A stretch of DNA of 64,000 nucleotides from positions 386,979 to 450,978 of the forward strand of contig CP064975.1 in assembly GCA_016699425.1 (NCBI GenBank). The letters run 5' to 3'. This document shows, piece after piece, positions 751-52,892 of the stretch. Source of the DNA: Candidatus Moraniibacteriota bacterium. Lineage in GTDB: Bacteria; Patescibacteriota; Minisyncoccia; Moranbacterales; UBA1568. Position 1 is the stretch's first letter, and every line of letters begins with the position of its first letter. Under the pieces are notes generated by a model. That model ran no database searches, had not been told where the DNA came from, and saw nothing but the letters and a program-made list of their open reading frames with translations. The position numbers were made by a program, and so were the translations under genes.

Positions 751-1953
751 ATGGAAAAGACTCAGGAACAACTCGTCGATGATATTTTGAGCCGAGGTAC
801 CATCGTTTCAATTCTCCCCGACAAGGAAAGTTTCCGGGTTCGGCTATTGAGCGGGGAAAAGATGAGATTTTTCATCGGTTTCGACGCGACCGCACCGACA
901 CTGCACCTCAGCCATGCGAAAAATATCATGCTGCTCGAGAAATTCCGGAAACTTGGGCATGAGACGATTGTTCTCTTTGGAGACTTCACAGCGCGGATCG
1001 GGGACCCGACAAGCGAGAAGTCAGCTCGGACCCAGCTTTCCCGTGAGGAAGTGCTACACAATATCGCCGCCTGGAAGGAACAGATAGCACCTCTGATGGA
1101 TTTCGGCGATGAGGTCAACCCACCCCGAGTGAAGTACAATCACGACTGGCTCTCCAAACTGAGTTTCGAGGATGTCATCCGCCTCGCTTCAAACTTTACG
1201 GTGCAACAGATGCTTGAGAGGGATATGTTCGAGAAGCGGATACAGGAGCAACTGCCCATTTACTTGCATGAGTTCTTCTATCCGCTGATGCAGGGATACG
1301 ATAGCGTTGCGATGGATGTCGATGTCGAACTGTGTGGCACTGACCAGACGTTCAATGCGCTCGCTGGCCGGACATTGATGAAGAAGTTAAAGCAGAAAGA
1401 GAAGTTCGTCGTTACGGTGACGCTCATGGAGGATCCAAAGACGGGGGAACTCATGTCCAAGAGTAAGGGGACGGGGGTGTTTTTGAATACATCAGCCAAT
1501 GAGAAGTTCGGACAGGTGATGGCTCAGCCGGACGAGATGATCCGGGTGCTGCTCGTGAACTGCACCCTGCTGTCCCTCGCTGAGATCGAAGTGATCATGC
1601 AAGCTCCGAATCCGCGTGATGCGAAGCTCCGACTCGCGAAAGAAATCGTCACTCTGTATCACGGGGCCGAAGCTGGTGTGGCGGCTGAACAATATTTCAT
1701 CGATACTTTTAGCAAAGGGCAGACGCCGACGGAGATGCCGTCTGTCACGGCAAGTGAAGGCATGGCATTTACTGAACTCATGGTCCTGGCGGGTGTCGCT
1801 ACGAGCAAGGGTGAGGCGCGGCGCAAGATCGAGCAGGGAGGCGTGTCGGTCAATGACACAAAACTTGAGGATTTTCTGGCCACAGTTTCAAAAGACCAAA
1901 ATGGCGCCGTCGTGAAAGTCGGGAAGAAGGATTTCTTTCGAATTATCCTTTAG
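751..1953 (+). CDS. tyrS: Tyrosyl-tRNA synthetase
   Basis: Class I aaRS with an HLSH (HIGH-like) motif, a KMSKS-like motif (LMSKSKG) and a C-terminal S4 domain (GEARRKIEQGGVSVND). Confidence 0.9.
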   Translation: MEKTQEQLVDDILSRGTIVSILPDKESFRVRLLSGEKMRFFIGFDATAPTLHLSHAKNIMLLEKFRKLGHETIVLFGDFTARIGDPTSEKSARTQLSREEVLHNIAAWKEQIAPLMDFGDEVNPPRVKYNHDWLSKLSFEDVIRLASNFTVQQMLERDMFEKRIQEQLPIYLHEFFYPLMQGYDSVAMDVDVELCGTDQTFNALAGRTLMKKLKQKEKFVVTVTLMEDPKTGELMSKSKGTGVFLNTSANEKFGQVMAQPDEMIRVLLVNCTLLSLAEIEVIMQAPNPRDAKLRLAKEIVTLYHGAEAGVAAEQYFIDTFSKGQTPTEMPSVTASEGMAFTELMVLAGVATSKGEARRKIEQGGVSVNDTKLEDFLATVSKDQNGAVVKVGKKDFFRIIL

Positions 1954-8964: not shown

Positions 8965-9657
8965 TTACTCTTTCCGACGAGCGATCCAGGTGAAGAAAAG
9001 AATTCCAAGGAGAAGTCCTGAAACCCCAAGTGTGAGCATCGAACCTTTCGCAATAGCCGGCTTGTACTGTGAAAGCCTGTTTTCTAATGCTTCAATACGC
9101 TCGGTAGGGTTTCCTCCGTTTGGTGCGTAGAGCGGACGGATTTCGAGTGTGCGTCCAAGATAGGTTTTCCCTTTGCCGTGATCAGTATACGAGAGTTCTT
9201 GAGATGACTCTGCTTCGGTGACCCTGATATAGGGCCGCTCCTTCTTTTTCCAGAGGCCTGGATGATATTCAATAGAGAGGCAATAGGAATTGTTTGTGCT
9301 AGCAGGGATGGTGGGAAATACGAAATGAATATCTCGTCTCGTTGGAATCGAGAACATGTTCCGGTTCGCACGGGCGAATACCTTGTGGCATGTCAGGTCC
9401 GACAGTACGAACTCGATCCGTTCACCGAGCCCGAGATCCGTATCGCCCATGAATATCTGAAAGCCTTCAAGTTCGTCCTGGTCCGCAATGAACACTTGAG
9501 TAATCGGGCCATTTGATGAGAGCTCAGCTCGTTTGGTATCCCCAAGAAAGTTCTGTGATGAATCAGGGAAATGAAGCAGGCTGAAGAACGCGACTCCGCA
9601 GGCTCCGATTGTAACGGTGAGGATGAGCGTCTTTGTGTTGAACCGGGCTAATTTCAT
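8965..9657 (-). CDS. Hypothetical exported/membrane-anchored protein
   Basis: Start placed at MKLARFNTKTLILTVTIGACGVAFF, a signal peptide or TM segment. Its ATG overlaps the upstream gene's stop (ATGA). It also has a C-terminal TM segment. Confidence 0.5.
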   Translation of the reverse strand: MKLARFNTKTLILTVTIGACGVAFFSLLHFPDSSQNFLGDTKRAELSSNGPITQVFIADQDELEGFQIFMGDTDLGLGERIEFVLSDLTCHKVFARANRNMFSIPTRRDIHFVFPTIPASTNNSYCLSIEYHPGLWKKKERPYIRVTEAESSQELSYTDHGKGKTYLGRTLEIRPLYAPNGGNPTERIEALENRLSQYKPAIAKGSMLTLGVSGLLLGILFFTWIARRKE

Positions 9658-11123
9658 AAGTAGTAGCGAGGGAGGATGACGAACCACAAAACATATGAGG
9701 TGAGCGCAAACATGGAAACTGAGAGAACGAGCAGGAGCTTTTGGAAAGACGCTCTCGTACGAGTGAAGTAGCCGAGGCCGGAAACCAGGAGGAGAACATG
9801 AGGGACGATATTTGGGAGAAAGTAGCGCCCCGGTGTCCCACTCAGAATCTTGCCCGTGGTATCGAAGATACGCCAATCAAAGAAACGGATCGCGAACTGA
9901 AGGAAAAGGATAGAAATGAACGCAAAAAGAAGGACGGATTTGTTCGCGAGAAAACGAGGAGGGTTTTTATCAAAAGTAAGCCAGATTAAGCCAAACGCAG
10001 CGGCAGTTTCGATGGCGAGAATGGTGTGAAGAATCGTTTTGGGAATATATGCATCAAGCCAACCGAAGCTGCCCCAGTAGGTGATGGCGGTCCAGGTGAG
10101 TGCTCCGAGTGACAATGTTTTTTCAATGTAGGCACTGATGGATTCAAGCGGGCTAGCGAAAACCGAAGCTGCCCCGAGATGAAGGAAGTTGGCAAGGATA
10201 TGAGCCGGAGTGAAGATGAAGAAAAGGCTCGTAATAACGAATCCAAACAAGAGACAGTAGGGGAAGAGGTCTCGACACGATGAGCTATAGCGACGGTATC
10301 CTGAAAAGAGTATGAGCACAATGAAAAGTCCGGCAAGTATAATGCCGGGACCCTTGGTGAAAACTCCAATGAGTGTTGCGACAAGAGAGATGCCGACCGA
10401 TTGAATTGTCAGACCAGAGGAAATCCAGAGGACTCCTCCATAAAAGAACAGTGAGAAGGCGAAAACGAGGAGGATATCGATGTTGACGACGGAACTCGTG
10501 GCGAGGAGCATCGGTTGAAAAGCGATGAGTGATGCAAACAGGGAGGCGATGATGGGTGACCAACCGAGTCGACGTGCGCTTAAATAAGCAACGAGAACGG
10601 TTAGGGCCCCAATGGCCACAGAGAGCAGACGAGCGAAAAAGAGTCTGTCAAAGATGGAATTGTCTGAAAACAGTCTCTCAATACCTGAACCGAGCCAATA
10701 GTAGAGTGACCAGGTTCCGGAAGTGTTTGCTGGGTAGGTGTCGATATACGGTTTCCAATTATTGTTCCGAATTTCATTTTCGGCAGGACCTTCTCGTGTT
10801 GCGGAAAAGTGCTGAGTATTGTTGGGTTGCCACTTGATCTCATCGAACTGCATCCGATAGACAGTCTCTCGGACTTCTTCCGAGAAGCGGTATGTACGAA
10901 TGTCGTCACCCTGGTTGAACTCGTGACTTTCAATGGTAGGCCAGGTTTTCTCGCTCGGTTCTGCCCAATGCTGGATGGTGGCGTAGTGGACCTGCTCATC
11001 GGGACCCTGGAAAAACGGTACGAGGAGCGCGATCCAGGTTCCAAGGATAAGAAAAAGTCCGACAAGCGGCATCCAGATGAACCGTTTTTCTACTCCGCGA
11101 GTGGTCGCTTGCTCAGTGGTCAT
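9654..11123 (-). CDS. GT-C fold integral-membrane glycosyltransferase (ArnT/PMT-like)
   Basis: About 12 TM segments. The first extracytoplasmic loop carries FFQGPDEQVHYA, resembling the ArnT PDExRYAE motif. Confidence 0.55.
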   Translation of the reverse strand: MTTEQATTRGVEKRFIWMPLVGLFLILGTWIALLVPFFQGPDEQVHYATIQHWAEPSEKTWPTIESHEFNQGDDIRTYRFSEEVRETVYRMQFDEIKWQPNNTQHFSATREGPAENEIRNNNWKPYIDTYPANTSGTWSLYYWLGSGIERLFSDNSIFDRLFFARLLSVAIGALTVLVAYLSARRLGWSPIIASLFASLIAFQPMLLATSSVVNIDILLVFAFSLFFYGGVLWISSGLTIQSVGISLVATLIGVFTKGPGIILAGLFIVLILFSGYRRYSSSCRDLFPYCLLFGFVITSLFFIFTPAHILANFLHLGAASVFASPLESISAYIEKTLSLGALTWTAITYWGSFGWLDAYIPKTILHTILAIETAAAFGLIWLTFDKNPPRFLANKSVLLFAFISILFLQFAIRFFDWRIFDTTGKILSGTPGRYFLPNIVPHVLLLVSGLGYFTRTRASFQKLLLVLSVSMFALTSYVLWFVILPRYYL

Positions 11124-43233: not shown

Positions 43234-44739
43234 TTAGTACATGATGATCGAGACGGGCATGAGGCGGGCGACGGGCTTGACGATATTGTTTTCTTTGACC
43301 GTCGCGATGATGTCGTCGATCCGCTTGTAGTGCGCACTGTCCTGTTCGATGACTTTGGAGGACTGGCCATTGTAGAGCCTCACACCGCGGGCTGTGAGTT
43401 TCTCATGGAGAGCTGACTTGTCCTCAGGGACAATCGTATCCGATTTTGACTTGGCCTTGCCGGCGCCATGATTGCAGGAGTAGAAGCTCGACTCGTTGCC
43501 GTCCATGCCGACGCAGAGGAAGGCTTCGGTTGACATCGAGCTCGGGATGAAAGCGGGCTCGCCCGTATCCTTGAACAGCGGGTGTCCCGCCATGCGCGAT
43601 GGACCATAGGCGCGGCTCGTGCCGTTGCGGTGTACCCAGACGGACTTCCCGTAGTGCTCTTCCTCCGAAACAAGGATATGCGGCATGTCGTAGAGGAGCT
43701 CGAGCTCAGGATCACGGCCGAGGACCTGCTTTACCGTCTCACTCACGTTGTGGGTGATGGTCGCACGGTTCGCATGAGCGAAGTTGGAGCAGGCATTGCG
43801 CGCCGCCATGTACATCTCGCCTTCCGGTCCGTGGCCATCATAGGTGAAGAGCTCTTCTTTGGCGCCGAACTGGTAGGCTTTGATCTTCTTTGCGATCCGA
43901 TCGTACACTGGCCGGAGCGGTGAGCGGAAGAGAAACTTGCCGAGCTCGACCATGATGGCCTGCGAGAGGTGCTCGCGCTTTTTCGCCGTGTACATGTACA
44001 TCGTGTATTGGCCGAGGATGCCCGATCCACAGTGGACCATGAAGACGTATTGGCCGTTTTGGAGACCGAATTTCTTGGCGGTCTCTTCGTCTTCGATGCC
44101 GGTCACTTTCATGAGGTCAAGGAAGTGATTACCGGCCGCGCCGAGGATGCCAAGCCGAAAGGTTGCAAACCAGAGGAAGAGTTTCGGGATGACGCTGTAG
44201 ATGCTCTCGCGTGAAACCTCGCTGCCGAAGAAATTTCCACTTTCGATGCAGTGCGTCTCCTCGTTCTTCGTCTCGATACCGAGCGCCGTGATGAGCGGAC
44301 GAATGCCGCCCCGGCAGATATCGACGACGGTATCAAAGGAAACCCGGGTACCGACAAACTGCTTCGTCGGGACGGTCGCGACGAGCGCCTGAAAGAGCAC
44401 ATCGAGTTCCTCAGGCGTGATATTGTTCTCGGTCAGATTGGTCTTCACCAGGCGCATGCCACAGGCCGGATCGGAGTCATTGACCTGGGGGAGGATGTGG
44501 TGTTCCGAAGTGACCGTTGTACCGGTGGCGTTCTTGCGGCCTGGCTTGGAGTGGACGTCGGCCATGGCCGCGATGTGATGGAACACCGTGTCGTTACTCG
44601 CGACACTTTCGAGTTGTTCTAGCGTCGCATCGCTTGGCATCAGGTCGTCGCCGACATGGAAGACGACGGGGACTTTCATCTGGTCCGTCTTCATTTCTTG
44701 CTTGAGATTGCCGATTTTCTTGATGGCGTCTTCGAACAT
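43234..44739 (-). CDS. rtcB: RtcB-like RNA ligase
   Basis: AMADVHSKPG, MVHCGSGILG and SCNHGAGKAKS correspond to the RtcB metal-binding and His-nucleophile regions. Confidence 0.6.
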   Translation of the reverse strand: MFEDAIKKIGNLKQEMKTDQMKVPVVFHVGDDLMPSDATLEQLESVASNDTVFHHIAAMADVHSKPGRKNATGTTVTSEHHILPQVNDSDPACGMRLVKTNLTENNITPEELDVLFQALVATVPTKQFVGTRVSFDTVVDICRGGIRPLITALGIETKNEETHCIESGNFFGSEVSRESIYSVIPKLFLWFATFRLGILGAAGNHFLDLMKVTGIEDEETAKKFGLQNGQYVFMVHCGSGILGQYTMYMYTAKKREHLSQAIMVELGKFLFRSPLRPVYDRIAKKIKAYQFGAKEELFTYDGHGPEGEMYMAARNACSNFAHANRATITHNVSETVKQVLGRDPELELLYDMPHILVSEEEHYGKSVWVHRNGTSRAYGPSRMAGHPLFKDTGEPAFIPSSMSTEAFLCVGMDGNESSFYSCNHGAGKAKSKSDTIVPEDKSALHEKLTARGVRLYNGQSSKVIEQDSAHYKRIDDIIATVKENNIVKPVARLMPVSIIMY

Positions 44740-46843: not shown

Positions 46844-46883
46844 CTGTACAAAGTGTGTTACTATAGTACCAGTCTTTGTACAA
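46844..46883. promoter_or_regulatory. Bipartite palindromic operator-like repeat (copy 1): cTGTACAA-N24-TTGTACAA
   Basis: TTGTACAA is a perfect 8-bp palindrome. The two boxes sit 32 bp centre-to-centre, separated by a conserved AGTGTGTTACTA spacer, and overlap the promoter of the regulator gene at 46911. Confidence 0.45.
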
Positions 46884-46910: not shown

Positions 46911-47516
46911 ATGCATCCGAAAACTCAAGAAGCTATTTGGTACGGAGCTTCAGCCAAACATACGGGTAACATCTCGATCAGTGGAGTGCTCCTCGGTGTC
47001 GTTGGGATGACGGGCCTCGTTGCGATCAGTCTCGTTGCTCCAAACGCTCTGAAACTGCTTCAGGCGATACCCACGCGAAATCGCCGCCGATCAGACAAAA
47101 AGTCTATTGATCAAACCCTAGATAAGCTCATCCAACAGCAGCATATCCATAAGGTACGAAAAAATGGAGCAAGTTTTTATATGCTTACCAAGAAAGGGGC
47201 GGCACAGTTGGCGAAGCTGAGACTCTCGATGGGTGCGCTCACTATTCCAAAAAAATGGGATGAAAAGTGGCGTATAGTGACCTATGATATTAGTGAAAAG
47301 CGACGTTCTAAACGAATACTGTTATTGCGAGCCTTATATGAGGCGGGATTTTATCACCTGCAGGATAGCGTGTGGGTTTATCCGTACCCTTGTCGAGAGC
47401 TCAGTGTGTTACTCAAATTTCACTTCGCGCTGGGGAAAGAAGTCTTGTATATTGAAGCAGCAGAAATTGAATTAGAGCCAAAATTGCTCAAACACTTTGG
47501 CCTACAGAGGAACTGA
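46911..47516 (+). CDS. PaaX-family-like wHTH transcriptional regulator (short, 201 aa)
   Basis: A winged-helix wing GASFYMLTKKG resembles PaaX RSFYSLSDKG. A middle-domain motif KKWDEKWRIVTYDISEKRRSKRILLLRALYEAGFYHLQDSVWVYPYP resembles PaaX AWDGKWLLLLSEGLDKS…LIWQGFGALAPSLMASP. Confidence 0.55.
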   Translation: MHPKTQEAIWYGASAKHTGNISISGVLLGVVGMTGLVAISLVAPNALKLLQAIPTRNRRRSDKKSIDQTLDKLIQQQHIHKVRKNGASFYMLTKKGAAQLAKLRLSMGALTIPKKWDEKWRIVTYDISEKRRSKRILLLRALYEAGFYHLQDSVWVYPYPCRELSVLLKFHFALGKEVLYIEAAEIELEPKLLKHFGLQRN

Positions 47517-47533: not shown

Positions 47534-47573
47534 ATTGTACAAAGTGTGTTACTACCGTTACTGGATTTGTACA
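47534..47573. promoter_or_regulatory. Bipartite operator-like repeat (copy 2): TTGTACAA-N24-TTGTACAA
   Basis: Same motif and spacing as copy 1. It lies about 25 bp upstream of the -35 of the COG0523 gene's promoter TTGACG-N17-TATGAT. Confidence 0.45.
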
Positions 47574-47634
47574 ATAAAGTGACGGGAGTAGGTTATTGAC
47601 GTATGATTGAGCGCTGCCTATGATGCAGTGACCT

Positions 47635-48684
47635 ATGGTTATGTCTGAGAAACTTTCACCAGTATTCAAGAAGATCCCAGTCACTATCCTGACGGGCTTC
47701 CTCGGCGCCGGCAAGACCACGCTCCTCAACCATATTCTCTCGTCCAAGACCGGTGAGAAGATCGTGGTCATCGTCAATGAATTCGGCGCGGTCGGGATCG
47801 ATGGGGCGTTGGTGGTCGGGGGCGAGGAGCACCTCGTCACGCTCGACAATGGCTGCATCTGCTGCACGGTCCGCAATGACTTGGTCGAGACCCTGACTGA
47901 CCTTCTGAAGCGGAAACTCGGCATGGCAGGAGAAATGGCCGAAGCAGGGGAAAGTGCTGCCCCACTTGTTTTCGATCGGATTGTGATCGAGACCACGGGC
48001 TTGGCTGATCCCATCCCGCTCGTCCAGACATTCATGATGGATGATGTCCTCATGGCAGCCTATGAAATAGCGGCCATCGTCACGGTCGTCGATGCCGTCC
48101 ATATCGAAAAGCAGCTCGGGTACCTGCCCGTAGCAGCCGAGCAGATCGCGCTCGCCGACCTCATCCTCCTGTCCAAGACCGATCTCTTCTTGGGCGAGGG
48201 AGAGAGCGAAGAAAGAAAAAAACGTATGTCTGAGATCGAGTCAAAAATTCAAGCCATCAATCCTGCGGCTCCGATCATAGCGACTGTCATGGGAGTGATC
48301 CCGAATGCCGAGCTCTTCCGCGAGCGGCGTTTCTTTGCGGCACCCGAAACCGTCCAAGGACATGACCACACGAGCCATACACACGGCATCTCGAGCGTTG
48401 TTCTAAAAACAGATAAGTTAATCGATATCGACCGGCTTTATGCCTGGATCGGGGAGCTTCAGAATAGCCTCGGCCCCGACCTCCTCCGCTACAAGGGCAT
48501 CATCTATTCGGACGAGTACCCAGGCAAACACGCTGTCCTGCAGGGTGTCCATGCGCTCTATACCGTCACCCCAGACCGCGAGTGGAAAGAAAATGAAAAA
48601 CGCGAATCCGTCATCGTCGTCATCGGCCAAAACCTCGATCGTGAAGCGATAGAACAAGGATTCAAGCGGTCACTAGCAGACTAA
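47635..48684 (+). CDS. COG0523-family GTPase (CobW/YeiR/ZigA-like metallochaperone)
   Basis: Walker A GFLGAGKTTLLNHIL and the metal-binding CXCC motif GCICCT. A C-terminal CobW_C-like domain is present. Confidence 0.85.
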   Translation: MVMSEKLSPVFKKIPVTILTGFLGAGKTTLLNHILSSKTGEKIVVIVNEFGAVGIDGALVVGGEEHLVTLDNGCICCTVRNDLVETLTDLLKRKLGMAGEMAEAGESAAPLVFDRIVIETTGLADPIPLVQTFMMDDVLMAAYEIAAIVTVVDAVHIEKQLGYLPVAAEQIALADLILLSKTDLFLGEGESEERKKRMSEIESKIQAINPAAPIIATVMGVIPNAELFRERRFFAAPETVQGHDHTSHTHGISSVVLKTDKLIDIDRLYAWIGELQNSLGPDLLRYKGIIYSDEYPGKHAVLQGVHALYTVTPDREWKENEKRESVIVVIGQNLDREAIEQGFKRSLAD

Positions 48685-48698
48685 GAGGCAAAAAGAAG

Positions 48699-48730
48699 AC
48701 GACCTCTGAGGTGGGTCGTCGTAGCTTCGG
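48699..48730 (-). terminator. Intrinsic terminator of the secreted-protein gene A (minus strand)
   Basis: Minus-strand hairpin gacgacccacctcagaggtcgtc followed by ttctttttg. It shares the cgtagcttcggttgaagcg tail with the other two terminator copies. Confidence 0.5.
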
Positions 48731-48750
48731 TTGAAGCGCCTTGGTGAACC

Positions 48751-49119
48751 CTAGTTCACCTTCTCGATCATTTTCAGCGGGCCGCTGGAGCAGGGCGATT
48801 GGCCGCCGCAAGGGCAAAGCTTGCCGAACTCGTTCAGCGCAGCTTGGACGGACGTCCACGAATTCGGCGACGCAGCCTTGACCACGGCCAGATCGACCTT
48901 CTCGCGAAGGTGGCGCGGCTGTCCCTTGAGGTTGGCCAAAGCAAAGGTGATCTCCATCATGGTTTCGTGAGGCTTCTCGTCGAAGACCGCGGCCTTGTAG
49001 TTCGAGATGTTGCCAGCGCCGATACCGGCCGCGCGGCAGATGGCTTCGTTGGTCACAGTCTGTGCCAGGGCAGCGGCAGACATGGTAGCGAGAAGGGCAA
49101 TGAGAAGGAACTTGGACAT
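48751..49119 (-). CDS. Small secreted Cys-containing protein, paralog A (122 aa)
   Basis: Signal peptide MSKFLLIALLATMSAAALA. Conserved blocks EAICRAAGIGAGNISNYKA and ALNEFGKLCPCGG. Confidence 0.6.
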   Translation of the reverse strand: MSKFLLIALLATMSAAALAQTVTNEAICRAAGIGAGNISNYKAAVFDEKPHETMMEITFALANLKGQPRHLREKVDLAVVKAASPNSWTSVQAALNEFGKLCPCGGQSPCSSGPLKMIEKVN

Positions 49120-49143
49120 GTTTACACTCCTGTTTGGATTGAC

Positions 49144-49203
49144 GTCTGACGAGGGAATCTCATCAGACTTTATATGATAGCATATAACGTGCCATCAGTC
49201 AAC
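49144..49203 (-). promoter_or_regulatory. Sigma70 promoter (TTGACT-N17-TATCAT) plus 5'-UTR hairpin of paralog A
   Basis: Minus-strand read: TTGACTgatggcacgttatatgcTATCATataaaGTCTGATGAGattccCTCGTCAGAC…aggagtgtaaacATG. Confidence 0.55.
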
Positions 49204-49294
49204 TATTAAAATGAGGCTTGAAAAAGCCAGAATTTGCGAAATATTTTGATTGCTGCTAGTCCGTCACTGTCATGGGTGAGGTCTGTGTAGAATA

Positions 49295-49471
49295 GGGCGG
49301 AGGCTTTGAAGCGCTCGAAAGTCTGGAAGCACAGCGTGCAGGACCGAGAGAATGATCGCGATGGGCAACTGTCGAGGTATAAGGTGCGCAAGCATCCGCG
49401 GAGCCGACCGTGAAATACGCCCCGGGCGTCAAAAGGTGACCGGCATGTCGAGTTGGATGTGCCGTTTTTTT
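49295..49471 (+). ncRNA. Candidate small RNA (copy 1) ending in a rho-independent terminator. It is part of a ~255-bp conserved non-coding module (49276-49530).
   Basis: A possible -10 TAGAAT at 49288-49293. The body carries internal hairpins gcacagcgtgc and acgccccgggcgt. The terminator is ccggcatgtcgagttggatgtgccg plus T9 at 49438-49471. Confidence 0.35.
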
Positions 49472-49477
49472 TTACAC

Positions 49478-49508
49478 AAAAAGAAAACGACCCTCTTGTA
49501 GGCGGGGT
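49478..49508 (-). terminator. Intrinsic terminator of paralog B (minus strand), back-to-back with the plus-strand terminator
   Basis: Minus-strand hairpin cgaccccgcctacaagagggtcg followed by ttttctttttgtgt. Confidence 0.5.
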
Positions 49509-49546
49509 CGTTGTAGCTTCGGTTGAAGCGGCCTCGTGGGACTTAG

Positions 49547-49915
49547 TCAGTCCTTCACCTTCAACGGATTGGTCACCGGCATGGAGCATGGCGCTTGGCC
49601 GCCGCAAGGACAAAGCTTGCCGAACTCGTTCAGCGCGGCTTGGACGGAGGGCCAAGACTTCGGCGAAGCAGCGTTGATCTTGGCGACGTTGACCTTTTCT
49701 TGCAAGTAGCGTGGTTGTTTGGTAAGGCTGACCGTTGCCGACAAGATGACCAGCATCGTCTCGTGGGGTTCCTTGTCGAAGACCGAGGCCTTATAGTTGC
49801 TGATGTTGCCAGCGCCGATACCGGCCGCACGGCAGATGGCCTCGTCAGTCACATCCTGCGCCAGGGCAGTGGCGGACACGAGGGCGAGGGCGGCGATGAT
49901 AAAGAGCTTGAGCAT
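49547..49915 (-). CDS. Small secreted Cys-containing protein, paralog B (122 aa)
   Basis: Start at MLKLFIIAALALVSATALA. It is about 65-70% identical to paralog A, sharing the same ICRAAGIGAGNISNYKA and NEFGKLCPCGG blocks. Confidence 0.6.
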   Translation of the reverse strand: MLKLFIIAALALVSATALAQDVTDEAICRAAGIGAGNISNYKASVFDKEPHETMLVILSATVSLTKQPRYLQEKVNVAKINAASPKSWPSVQAALNEFGKLCPCGGQAPCSMPVTNPLKVKD

Positions 49916-49935
49916 GGAAACCTCCAGTTGTTGAT

Positions 49936-49989
49936 GCCGATGAGAATTCATCGGACTGCATATGATAGCACGTTTTGTGCCATCAGTCA
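49936..49989 (-). promoter_or_regulatory. Sigma70 promoter (TTGACT-N17-TATCAT) plus 5'-UTR hairpin of paralog B
   Basis: Minus-strand read: TTGACTgatggcacaaaacgtgcTATCATatgcagtCCGATGAattcTCATCGGcatcaacaactGGAGGtttccATG. Confidence 0.55.
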
Positions 49990-50083
49990 AACTAAAAAGT
50001 GGCTTTATAGAGCCGTAGTTTTCACTTATTTCTCACCTTGTACTAGTCTTTTTCTGTTACTAGTGAGGCCTGTGTAGGATAGG

Positions 50084-50261
50084 GCGGAGGGCTTTGATGC
50101 GCTCGAAGGTCTGGAAGCACAGCGTGCAGGACCGAGAGAATGATCTCGCGGGCAGCCCCCCGAGGTATACGGTGCGCAAGCATCCGCGGAGCCGACCTTG
50201 AAATACGCCCCGGGCGTCAAAAGGTGACCGGCATGTCGAGTTGGATGTGCCGTTTTTTTTT
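50084..50261 (+). ncRNA. Candidate small RNA (copy 2). It is part of the second ~255-bp conserved module (50063-50320).
   Basis: About 95% nucleotide identity to copy 1, including the identical terminator ccggcatgtcgagttggatgtgccg plus T9 at 50228-50261. Confidence 0.35.
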
Positions 50262-50275
50262 ACACAAAAAGAAAA

Positions 50276-50297
50276 CGACCCTCTTGTAGGCGGGGTC
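50276..50297 (-). terminator. Intrinsic terminator of the secreted-protein gene at 50335-50853 (minus strand)
   Basis: Same hairpin as at 49486-49508, followed by a U-tract. Confidence 0.45.
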
Positions 50298-50334
50298 ATT
50301 ATAGCGTCGGTTGACGCAGCCTATTGCTGCATGG

Positions 50335-50853
50335 CTACCAGGTGGGTACGAACCTGGCCAGCCCAATGGTGTCCAATTTCACGTAGTGGACATAGATTTT
50401 GTGGAGGATGTTCGGAACCTTAATGACGTCATTTCGCCAGTTACGTGATGTCACTGGGTTAATCTCAGCTTGCACGAAGACGCCGTTGCCGTACAGGTTG
50501 CCGGGACCACACTTTGCCTGAATGTGGACGGTTTCGGGCACGCCAATGACATCAACGAAACAACGCCCGGTGCGGTCGGTTTGACGACGGATTTCGTTCG
50601 TGCTTTCAGGAACCTTCGTCCAGTCGTTTCCGACAATCACCCAGCCGTCTTTGGCAAAGGCGGCCTGGATGTCCTTGAATGCAAACTCGACTGCGTTTCT
50701 GTCGGCTTTCGGACTGTCCAGGCGATAGCTCACGGTGATTTCCGGCATCCCCTTCTTCGAGAGGAGTGCGTAGTTGTCCGTGTCTTCGGCATGCGCGCAG
50801 GAAGTGACGATCGACAGCAGGGTGACGAATAGCGTGGTAAGGAACTTGGACAT
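50335..50853 (-). CDS. Secreted/possible lipoprotein, hypothetical (172 aa)
   Basis: Signal peptide MSKFLTTLFVTLLSIVTSCAHA, with a possible lipobox Cys. Its promoter and leader are like those of the two paralogs. Confidence 0.55.
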   Translation of the reverse strand: MSKFLTTLFVTLLSIVTSCAHAEDTDNYALLSKKGMPEITVSYRLDSPKADRNAVEFAFKDIQAAFAKDGWVIVGNDWTKVPESTNEIRRQTDRTGRCFVDVIGVPETVHIQAKCGPGNLYGNGVFVQAEINPVTSRNWRNDVIKVPNILHKIYVHYVKLDTIGLARFVPTW

Positions 50854-50886
50854 GGAAACCTCCGATTAGGTTGGTGCCGACGAGGA

Positions 50887-50941
50887 ATTCATCGGACAAC
50901 ACATGGTAGCATAAAACGTGCTATCAGTCAATATAAAAAGA
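50887..50941 (-). promoter_or_regulatory. Sigma70 promoter (TTGACT-N17-TACCAT) plus 5'-UTR hairpin of the third secreted-protein gene
   Basis: Minus-strand read: TTGACTgatagcacgttttatgcTACCATgtgttgtCCGATGAattccTCGTCGGcaccaacctaatcGGAGGtttccATG. Confidence 0.5.
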
Positions 50942-50966
50942 GGCTTATTGAAGCCGTAAATTTCAC

Positions 50967-52892
50967 TTATTTTTCGGTTCGTTCAAAGATAGCGGCGGTT
51001 TGGCTGGTGTAGAGCTTGGAGAAGGAGTCGGATTTCTCGAACTGCGCCTTGTCGTACTCGGGGTTCACGACGAGATAGCGGACCTCGGTCGTTTTGAAGC
51101 AGGCTTCGCCGAAAGCGGTGTTGGGCGTCGAGATCATCGCGAGGGTGCAGCGCTCACGGCGATTGCCGCCCTCTTCGTAGCGGCCAAAGAGTCCGCGCGA
51201 GAGTGGATAGCCATAGTCGCGGTGGAAGGAGAGCTTCATCCAGGCGTCGGCGGAGAGGTAGTTGTGGTCCTTCAGGATCATGGCGCCATCGGCGTGGTCG
51301 GCCAGGTAGCTAGTCGCCGCAAAGGTCTGGACGAGTTCCTTTGAGCGGTCCTTGGTGCTGAGCGAGCTCGCATTGTCGAAAGAGCCCGAGCCGACGAGGA
51401 AGACGAGGATAGCAGCGGTCGCGAGCATTCGGAAATCCACTGGGAGGTTTGATCGACTCCAGAGCGCGCCAGCGAGCCAGGTGAGTGCGAAAGCGGCCGC
51501 GAGCGCGAGCGGATAGGCCAAGTAGCTCCCGATGCGGCTCGAAGGGATATCGAGGAGGAGAAGATGCGGATACATGGCCATGACGAGGAGGATGCCGCCC
51601 CAGCCGATGACAAACCCGCTCTCGATCGGTCGGCGGCGGACGAAGCCAAGCACGAGAAGAATGCCAAAGACTCCGAGCGCGACTTTTCCCATGCCGATGG
51701 AGTTCGAGACTTGGAAGAAGGAAAGCCCGGTGCGCGTCGTTTTGGTCGGGGTGCCGATAGCGGAATCGATCGCGGCGGTATCGAGATAAGTCGGGAGCAG
51801 GGCGAATCCCATGAAGAGTCCGGCGAGGAGGAGGACTGATAGTACTGCTGGAGAGAAAGCGAGGCGAAGCCAATCACGGAGGAAGTTACGCTTGCTCATC
51901 ATGAGGCCGAGCGCCGTGATGGCGATCGTGCCAGCGAGGATGAATGCCAGGACAAGGGTCGAGAGATGATGAGTGTAGGCGAGGATGAACGCGAAGAACA
52001 GCCCAACCGCGATGAAGACCGAACGTCGCTCATGGAGCCCGCGATAGAAGAGGAGTAGCACCGCCGGGATGAAGAGATTGCCAAAGAGATTGCCCACGAC
52101 GCCGCCAGTCACGAATTTCGCCTGGGGTGAGGCCAAGGCGAAGAGCGGCCCGAGGATGAGGAGAACAAAGAGTGCGACATACTCGGGACGGATGTCTTTC
52201 TCGAACGGCTGCGCGACGCGAAACGCGAGCGCTGTCACTGCGAGGACGGAGAGGAGATTGATGATATGCAGGAAGAGAATCGGGAACGCGCTCGTGAAGT
52301 CGAGGCTCGAAAGTTCGGAGAGAAACGCGAGCGGGAGATGTTCGCCGATGATGAAGTCAGCGATACCGCGGGGCGGGGCGACGGTTGCCGTGCCAGTCGC
52401 GGGATCGACGACGATCTCGATTTTTTCGTAGTTTGGGAGGGCTTTGGTCTCGCGGATCATCTCGGACCAGTAGACATGATGGCCGAGGTCGGTCGCGGTG
52501 GGGAGGATGTTTGGCGCGAGATAGATGGTACGAATGAGAAGGGTCAACGCAAAGAGCACGAAGAAAATACGAAGGCCGTTTTTCGTGAAAGTCGGCACGG
52601 GATCGTTTATAGTCCCGGCAAGGGGCTTCTTCGCCCAGAGTATCGCTCCACCCAAGAGGATAAGGAAGACAAGTGAACTGCCGACATACGGGAGCGAGAG
52701 CGGGAGACCGAACCGTCCGAGGAGGAGCATGATGAGATCGATCGCTGCGAGGCTCGTGAGGAAGCTGAAGACGATCTCTTCTAATCCAGAGAACACGCGG
52801 CTGAAAATCGCGCGCCACCAGATGAAACCGGGGACGAAGAAAGCGCCGATGAGGGCGAGGAGGAATGCGGCGGTATGGAGGAGTGCGTCCAT
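50967..52892 (-). CDS. Large polytopic membrane protein (641 aa), possibly a GT-C-like glycosyltransferase or polymerase
   Basis: About 14 TM segments followed by a C-terminal soluble domain. No diagnostic motif. Confidence 0.45.
   Translation of the reverse strand: MDALLHTAAFLLALIGAFFVPGFIWWRAIFSRVFSGLEEIVFSFLTSLAAIDLIMLLLGRFGLPLSLPYVGSSLVFLILLGGAILWAKKPLAGTINDPVPTFTKNGLRIFFVLFALTLLIRTIYLAPNILPTATDLGHHVYWSEMIRETKALPNYEKIEIVVDPATGTATVAPPRGIADFIIGEHLPLAFLSELSSLDFTSAFPILFLHIINLLSVLAVTALAFRVAQPFEKDIRPEYVALFVLLILGPLFALASPQAKFVTGGVVGNLFGNLFIPAVLLLFYRGLHERRSVFIAVGLFFAFILAYTHHLSTLVLAFILAGTIAITALGLMMSKRNFLRDWLRLAFSPAVLSVLLLAGLFMGFALLPTYLDTAAIDSAIGTPTKTTRTGLSFFQVSNSIGMGKVALGVFGILLVLGFVRRRPIESGFVIGWGGILLVMAMYPHLLLLDIPSSRIGSYLAYPLALAAAFALTWLAGALWSRSNLPVDFRMLATAAILVFLVGSGSFDNASSLSTKDRSKELVQTFAATSYLADHADGAMILKDHNYLSADAWMKLSFHRDYGYPLSRGLFGRYEEGGNRRERCTLAMISTPNTAFGEACFKTTEVRYLVVNPEYDKAQFEKSDSFSKLYTSQTAAIFERTEK

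Follow-up and report, generated by a model that had tools for sequence, protein, structure and literature searches.

A tandem pair of probable RNA genes resembling the L1 stalk of 23S rRNA in a cobW-linked locus of a Moraniibacteriota genome

A 64,000-nucleotide stretch of the Candidatus Moraniibacteriota bacterium genome (assembly GCA_016699425.1, contig CP064975.1, positions 386,979 to 450,978; hereafter the window) carries two tandem copies of a small non-coding element that resembles the L1 stalk of 23S rRNA. The order along the window is cobW, gene A, element copy 1, gene B, element copy 2, gene C and a gene for a 641-aa membrane protein (Table 1). The cobW gene encodes a COG0523 GTPase while gene A (NCBI IPJ68_02130) encodes a 122-aa secreted protein and gene B is its paralogue. 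Genes A and B are 75.6% identical as DNA and 68% identical as proteins, the latter in line with the 65–70% given for the neighbouring paralogues in an initial annotation of this DNA. Two copies of the element are present because a unit of about 790 bp, consisting of a secreted-protein gene, an operator-bearing promoter, the RNA gene and terminators, was duplicated in tandem. BLAST aligns positions 49276–49534 with 50063–50322 and thus recovers the 255-bp duplicated module described in the initial annotation. The measured identity, 92.3% over 261 columns, is slightly lower than the proposed value of about 95%, with the high similarity itself borne out. An ungapped comparison (49302–49534 with 50090–50322) yields 92% and the RNA part alone 92.7%, with the differences concentrated in one hairpin, P5 (49355–49378 and 50143–50166). 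The module is composite: a plus-strand RNA gene of about 205 nt is followed by about 55 bp of minus-strand terminator region that belongs to the convergent gene. No further copy was detected in the window, either by BLAST or with our own covariance model (R1), which scores copy 1 at 225.9 bits and copy 2 at 233.7 bits.

The element had been described as matching no RNA family. Using pieces of about 200 nt searched singly against Rfam by cmscan, a check the initial annotation had itself suggested, we found that all four distinct copies match the bacterial large subunit (LSU) rRNA model RF02541 at positions 2120/2128 to 2213/2221, corresponding to the L1 stalk (H76-H77-H78). Two of these copies are those of the window and the other two come from contigs L001, which together with L002 originates from JGI metagenomes, and L015, which together with L016 represents two NCBI Moraniibacteriota metagenome-assembled genomes (MAGs). 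The matches are local and on the plus strand, with scores of 24.1 bits for copy 1 (E 8.6e-6; model 2128–2213 at 49277–49431), 18.1 bits for copy 2 (E 7e-4; 50064–50219), 17.8 bits for L015 (E 1e-3) and 23.0 bits for L001 (E 1.9e-5; model 2120–2221, with an H76 of 17 bp). As a control, the true E. coli stalk aligns to model positions 2115–2227 at 70.6 bits. BLAST searches against E. coli genomes returned near-exact matches of 24–27 nt annotated as 23S rRNA. The element falls short of a 23S gene, with local scores of 18–24 bits against the RF02541 gathering cut-off of 50 bits, a terminator of its own and matches that end at the base of H76. No LSU match at the gathering threshold and no other 23S segment are found in the whole window. 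As the alignment stops at the H76 base and other LSU segments are lacking, the element appears to be a stalk domain cut out of its rRNA context and closed on itself, rather than a portion of a 23S gene. Rfam scanning of the whole window does not reveal the stalk match, which surfaces only when the element is searched alone; a scan of 48600–51100 at E<=10 gave only noise.

H76, H77 and the base of H78 occur in the same order as in the 23S L1 stalk (RF02541 ca. 2115–2227), and loop A (GUGUAGGAUAGG in 23S rRNA), the internal loop UUUGAA/GGA and loop B (GACCUUGAAAUA) are near-identical, so that the T-loop core of the stalk is present. Loop A, which we take to be 23S positions 2111–2119 in E. coli numbering and the stalk's first T-loop, matches E. 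coli exactly in copy 2, L015 and L001, whereas copy 1 carries one G-to-A change in it. The TAGAAT of copy 1 (TAGGAT in copy 2), previously read as a -10 box, sits inside the RNA in the middle of this loop. Loop B (GACCUUGAAAUAC), presumably 23S positions 2162–2173 and the second T-loop, equals E. coli in copy 2 and L015, with one change in copy 1 and two in L001. In copy 2, the segment GGAGCCGACCUUGAAAUAC containing loop B is identical to E. coli over 19 nt. The domain-closing stem H76 is of the same length as in 23S rRNA, 17 bp in the L001 copy, and 9–17 bp of it are paired in the Rfam alignments. The 5-bp H77 and the H78 base with its internal loop are likewise present, as in the Rfam consensus and E. 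coli. In contrast, the simple hairpin tip of H78, 14–20 nt in the RF02541 model, is absent and its place is taken by an insertion of 83–85 nt containing three hairpins (P4, P5 and P6), which in the RNAalifold consensus form a four-way junction with the H78 stem. Further differences from the 23S stalk are the location outside a 23S gene in a cobW/secreted-protein locus, the element's own terminator and candidate promoter and the presence of two tandem copies. We consider it very probable that the element is an L1-stalk-derived RNA gene.

Table 1. Features of the L1-stalk-like RNA locus (positions in the window).
Feature	Coordinates	Strand	Details	Basis
L1-stalk-like RNA, copy 1	49269–49473	+	ca. 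205 nt, H76 base to U9 tail	RF02541 match, R1 score
H76 5' strand, copy 1	49269–49285	+	GUCAU (49269–49273), GGG bulge, UGAGGUCUG (49277–49285); GUCAU pairs with GUGAC (49436–49440), UGAGGUCUG with CGGGCGUCA (49423–49431)	Rfam alignment
Loop A, copy 1	49286–49294	+	UGUAGAAUA	Rfam alignment, E. coli comparison
H77 5' strand, copy 1	49295–49299	+	GGGCG, pairs with CGCCC (49418–49422)	Rfam alignment
H78 base, copy 1	49302–49313	+	GGC, internal loop UUUGAA, GCG; pairs with CGC-GGA-GCC (49397–49405)	Rfam alignment
Insertion replacing H78 tip, copy 1	49314–49396	+	83 nt; P4 49314–49348, two-tier; P5 49355–49378, variable; P6 49383–49396, GCAA tetraloop	skipped as [83] in Rfam alignments; RNAalifold consensus
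Loop B, copy 1	49406–49417	+	GACCGUGAAAUA	Rfam alignment, E. coli comparison
Intrinsic terminator, copy 1	49441–49473	+	9-bp stem, 6-nt loop, U9	terminator scan
Terminator region of convergent gene B	49474–49530	-	outside RNA; three copies	read from sequence; repeat family D5
L1-stalk-like RNA, copy 2	50056–50261	+	ca. 206 nt	RF02541 match, R1 score
H76, copy 2	50056–50072/50211–50228	+
Loop A, copy 2	50073–50081	+
H77, copy 2	50082–50086/50206–50210	+
H78 base, copy 2	50090–50101/50185–50193	+
Insertion, copy 2	50102–50184	+
Loop B, copy 2	50194–50205	+
Terminator, copy 2	50229–50252	+	U9 at 50253–50261
Terminator region of convergent gene C	50262–50320	-	outside RNA	read from sequence
Candidate promoter, copy 1	49234–49262	+	-35-like TTGCGA (49234–49239), 17-nt spacer, TG-C-TAGTCC (49254–49262)	read from sequence
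Candidate promoter, copy 2	50021–50049	+	TTCACT (50021–50026), 17-nt spacer, TAGTCT (50044–50049)	read from sequence
Tandem duplication	48713–50293	.	unit of ca. 790 bp	repeat families D1, D2, D3, D5, D6, each spaced 787–796
RtcB RNA ligase gene	43234–44739	-
PaaX-like regulator gene	46911–47516
39-nt near-palindromes	46845–46883; 47535–47574		TGTACAAAGTGTGTTACTA...CTTTGTACAA
cobW/COG0523 GTPase gene	47635–48684	+		
Terminator region after gene A	48689–48738		85% identical	BLAST
Gene A	48751–49119	-
Gene B	49547–49915	-
Gene C	50335–50853	-
Gene for 641-aa membrane protein	50967–52892	-
Promoters of genes A, B, C	49175–49202; 49963–49990; 50904–50931	-	sigma-70-like
Predicted 5' UTRs of genes A, B, C	49120–49168; 49916–49956; 50854–50897	-
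Hairpins upstream of promoters of genes A, B, C	49213–49228; 49999–50016; 50942–50955	-	GGCTT-N4-5-AAGCC, T-run

The pairing pattern of the four sequences is in agreement with the rRNA-guided structure. Laid on their alignment, this structure comprises 59 pairs with 97% of pair cells paired, compared to 32–45% when partner columns are slid. In H76, pairing reaches 100% in the outer helix, where C-G/U-G changes occur, and 90% in the inner one. Three pairs are changed on both sides and still paired, namely a C-G to U-A change in H77 and a G-C to A-U change in P4, both in L001, and one pair in P5. L001 also has one H77 G-C pair turned G-U. In eleven pairs just one partner varies, and G-U pairing preserves all of their cells except two. 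P5 occurs as three different sequences and adopts a hairpin fold in all four variants (z -1.9 to -2.7). The minimum free energy z-scores of the whole RNA are unremarkable at -0.65 and -0.96. Seven G-U pairs would become A-C mismatches on the opposite strand, which together with the plus-strand rRNA match identifies plus as the RNA strand.

These strand-specific signals and the terminator scan, which reports stems at 49441–49464 and 50229–50252 each followed by T9, support the plus-strand RNA gene pair with individual intrinsic terminators proposed in the initial annotation. The terminator directly abuts H76, the stem in which the 5' and 3' ends of the RNA come together. A weak sigma-70-like pair of motifs with a 17-nt spacer can be recognized by eye upstream of all four homologues, being TTCACT-17-TAGTCT in both copy 2 and L015; a consensus promoter scan does not report an RNA promoter as the motifs are too weak. 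Transcription would start at the first G of H76, near G49269 in copy 1. The predicted RNA is about 205 nt long instead of the 175 nt estimated earlier, with its 5' end about 7 nt upstream of the previously assigned start. Across the four homologues the terminator stem is invariant with only one loop base varying. Set against the ca. 20% divergence of the remaining RNA in L001, this invariance suggests a sequence-specific role beyond termination. Downstream of the RNA, the nearest same-strand feature is the terminator of the convergent gene. For gene B, this region contains a CGACCC/GGGTCG hairpin with a minus-strand T-run as well as a GCTTCGGTTGAAGC hairpin, and it recurs after gene A.

The element is rare and confined to a syntenic locus. 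We fetched the contigs of eleven gene-A homologues and found the element only in L001/L002 and L015/L016, always at a cobW-linked locus syntenic with that of the window, which answers the test of conservation in related genomes put forward in the initial annotation. Its presence at the syntenic locus in other assemblies, combined with the lack of any other copy in the window, excludes chance. Between L015 and copy 2 the RNA is 97.2% identical, compared with 76.8% for cobW DNA and 79.5% for the adjacent coding sequence (CDS). The corresponding values for L001 are ca. 82%, 72.7% and 84%. The RNA is therefore far better conserved than coding DNA in L015 and about equal to the adjacent CDS in L001. 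Overall, the earlier claim of conservation exceeding that of the neighbouring genes is supported across the three lineages. The RNA has presumably been kept similar by rRNA-like constraints acting on it. Gene conversion had been offered as another cause of the similarity, but copy 2 is nearer to L015 than to copy 1, which makes recent conversion between the window copies unlikely. In L015, an extra spacer of about 75 nt (1600–1676, minus strand of the locus) separates the RNA terminator from that of the next gene; it is absent from the window and L001. A pattern scan of genome contigs returned 47 loci, 46 of them chance coding matches and only the L015 contig real, representing one matched species representative among 185,579. 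The same scan yielded 20 loci in metagenome contigs, none of them real, and none in viral contigs. Searching translated spurious open reading frames (ORFs) against a protein database recovered only L001's own ORF. In total, four distinct sequences from three Moraniibacteriota lineages were identified, and wider searches added nothing more.

The retained stalk determinants lead us to infer a free mimic that would bind uL1 and/or tRNA. Each copy would be an independently transcribed RNA whose core copies the L1 stalk, retaining the nucleotides responsible in the ribosome for the uL1-binding surface and for the interdigitated T-loops stacking on the tRNA elbow. Through molecular mimicry, the free RNA may act as a decoy for stalk ligands, ribosomal protein uL1 first and possibly deacylated tRNA, and uL1 could be titrated or stored away from ribosomes or from its autoregulatory mRNA site. 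In our assessment, this uL1 and/or tRNA decoy mechanism has an even chance of being correct. A similar logic, the titration of a factor by its imitated target, underlies the decoy RNAs 6S RNA, CsrB/RsmZ and GlmY, none of which is related to the element in sequence or structure or matches it in Rfam. The autoregulatory sites for uL1 in mRNAs are known to mimic only the H77/H78 junction. Binding of uL1 to rRNA involves H76–H78, and excess uL1 represses rplK-rplA via mRNA sites that mimic the rRNA site (PMC10931766). Such sites are found in the rplK/rplA (L11 operon) leaders of bacteria and archaea and, like the element, which shares their mimicry of the H77/H78 uL1 site, imitate the 23S site outside the ribosome (PMC10931766). 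Each is a short stem-loop of irregular shape that contains an internal bulge, and its binding is weaker than that of rRNA, the uL1-rRNA complex being more stable than the uL1-mRNA complex (PMC10931766). Archaeal L1 mRNAs can also be regulated by L1 proteins from bacteria (PMC10931766). While the mRNA sites act in cis within the 5' untranslated region (UTR) of a ribosomal protein operon, the element comprises the whole stalk on a predicted separate, terminated transcript and would represent a trans-acting, full-length version of these mimics. In contrast to the leaders it is not located next to rplK or rplA, neither of which was found in the window by tblastn using E. coli L1 and L11 queries.

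A number of observations weigh against this proposal. The candidate promoter is only a weak consensus match and transcription is predicted from sequence. With only four distinct sequences, the power of the covariation analysis is low, and 39 of 500 shuffles reach the observed score. The locus is without ribosomal genes, the neighbours being a COG0523 GTPase and secreted proteins, and neither the 83-nt insertion nor the near-invariant terminator hairpin is accounted for by a decoy of stalk ligands. In addition, we take Moranbacterales to belong to the class Paceibacteria. No part of the ribosome is evolutionarily more labile in the candidate phyla radiation (CPR) than the L1 stalk, uL1 having disappeared from many Parcubacteria/Paceibacteria, and H78 from ABY1, WWE3 and Microgenomatia. 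Paceibacteria are reported to keep H78 but to lack rplA (PMC12641178). Should uL1 be absent from this genome, a uL1 decoy would fail as an explanation. The occurrence of the element in a group whose stalk components are in flux thus limits the decoy hypothesis and at the same time raises interest in it.

A function that would still work in a lineage without uL1 is that of a tRNA-binding RNA. Its double T-loop platform would attach to the elbow of (deacylated) tRNA, whether or not uL1 is also bound, and the RNA would serve as a sponge for tRNA or as a tRNA sensor, a second function being supplied by the H78 insertion and terminator. The interdigitated T-loops are formed by loops A and B, whose sequences are essentially those of E. 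coli, and RtcB RNA ligase is conserved about 4.5 kb away in the window and also near the element in L001, if several genes distant. Interdigitated T-loops of the stalk recognize the tRNA elbow by stacking, and the same motif is found in T-box Stem I and RNase P, which recruited it independently for tRNA recognition (PMC4810234). The T-box and RNase P modules arose by convergence in unrelated contexts (PMC4810234), whereas the element is homologous in sequence to the rRNA stalk itself. As in T-box leaders, a terminator follows the structured domain, but specifier and antiterminator features were not found in the element. There is no visible second tRNA contact, neither a specifier-like site nor a UGGN site for the NCCA end, and the UGG that the window copies carry in their terminator loop is lacking in L015 and L001. 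Elbow stacking alone provides weak affinity. We consider a dedicated tRNA-binding role unlikely. The arrangement of a structured domain immediately followed by a terminator, with a convergent gene downstream in all four cases, could also reflect a riboswitch-like attenuator whose ligand-sensing domain controls read-through antisense into that gene (B, C or equivalents). The terminator hairpin is unusually invariant, and riboswitches acting by antisense are documented (PMC9943018, PMC2566862). However, the U9 tract and 9-bp stem look constitutive, no conserved antiterminator alternative was found by inspection, the L015 spacer separates the RNA from the next gene's terminator and the downstream genes belong to different families. 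The domain is explained by rRNA homology and not by an aptamer, there is no same-strand downstream gene at any of the four loci and no Rfam riboswitch family is matched. Attenuation is accordingly very unlikely.

The very narrow distribution, with a single match among the species representatives and no real metagenome or viral matches, and the L001 RNA being no more conserved than the adjacent CDS would fit a non-functional relic, a 23S fragment captured intergenically and duplicated in tandem whose similarity reflects only recent ancestry or gene conversion. Such a relic would not be expected to consist of exactly one autonomous, self-closed folding domain equipped with a terminator, to accumulate substitutions that avoid or compensate pairs or to remain 97% identical between genomes whose cobW DNA is 77% identical. 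The 83-nt insertion is conserved and structured as well, and the closer relationship of copy 2 to L015 speaks against recent conversion, so that we regard this explanation as distinctly unlikely. The initial annotation favored a novel pair of base-pairing small RNAs (sRNAs) regulating the flanking secreted-protein genes, or a micro-protein gene. The element is indeed a small terminated unit, divergent from operator-controlled promoters and opposite in orientation to the flanking genes, but it overlaps no CDS, its sequence is explained by rRNA homology and RNAduplex predicts no stronger pairing with the 5' regions of genes A, B and C than it does for shuffled RNAs (z -1.1 to +1.3). The ORF, described as 29 codons, has 49 codons in the window copies, runs through the terminator, lacks a Pfam match and is stopped by TAG after 16 codons in L001. 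Both versions of this proposal are highly improbable. Among other candidates, a match to the C/D-box snoRNA sR23 (26 bits, L015) was rejected as the model is without base pairs and the match hinges on the variable sequence of P5; it is not listed for L001 or copy 1. A ykkC/guanidine-like aptamer (considered on account of a shared CCGAGAG), signal recognition particle RNA, 6S RNA and RNase P lack Rfam support. A miniature inverted-repeat transposable element or other mobile element was discarded with just two copies in the window, both at this locus, and one match in a representative MAG.

We found no description of a free-standing L1-stalk RNA in the literature, and a small RNA gene that encodes part of the ribosome separately appears to be unreported so far. 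To our knowledge, the only RNAs known to imitate rRNA for the binding of ribosomal proteins are short, cis-acting and located in ribosomal protein mRNAs. The element would instead be a complete, autonomous rRNA domain turned into its own small gene, with a lineage-specific expansion, duplicated and under purifying selection. A more far-reaching and distinctly doubtful idea is that the L1 stalk has become a separately encoded and separately expressed module in this CPR lineage. Under this idea, the RNA could be a trans-acting or exchangeable stalk that docks on ribosomes via the 83-nt H78 expansion, possibly owing to a reduced 23S stalk or as a stress-specific alternative, or else, with uL1 lost from the organism, a riboregulator that derives from the stalk and binds tRNA. 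If true, it would define a new RNA class consisting of a ribosomal domain set free from rRNA. A free stalk would offer a testable handle on how CPR bacteria manage uL1 and E-site tRNA and would be the fourth context of the double T-loop tRNA-elbow module.

A small secreted protein family without a Pfam or NCBIfam match, of which 13 clusters were found, includes genes A and B. The family is characterized by the conserved motif AICRAAGIGAGNISNYKA in the N-terminal part and by CPCGGQxPC in the C-terminal part and, in the fetched contigs, often adjoins cobW or genes for HI0933-like FAD oxidoreductases and DsbB. The COG0523 (CobW/YjiA/ZigA-like) GTPase contains the His-rich stretch GHDHTSHTHG and adjoins the element in all three lineages. 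It also shows a weak NCBIfam match (E 5.7e-4), far below the cut-off, to the ribosome-hibernation-factor-recruiting GTPase MRF. The promoters of genes A, B and C have the form TTGACT-17-TATCAT/TACCAT, each enclosing the palindrome TGRTAGCA-N7-TGCYATYA, which is kept in L001 and L015. Three such sites occur in the window, only at these promoters, with 0.01 expected by chance. This palindrome probably serves as the operator of a single regulon, which may respond to metal in view of the COG0523 neighbour. The predicted 5' UTRs of the three genes open with a hairpin of 7–10 bp, for example GUCUGAUGAG-AUUCC-CUCGUCAGAC. Of the hairpins located just upstream of these promoters, that at 50942–50955 is likely the terminator of the 641-aa gene and the other two look like copies carried with the promoter cassette.

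A PaaX-like regulator gene with a Cas2-like domain is located just upstream of cobW, and a PaaX_M gene also lies beside cobW in L016. The 39-nt near-palindromes flanking the PaaX-like gene on both sides likely represent an operator/promoter pair. The L001 counterpart of rtcB (9010–10405) is located about 3.3 kb from the element; the rtcB genes of some bacteria are linked to Y-RNA-like non-coding RNAs.

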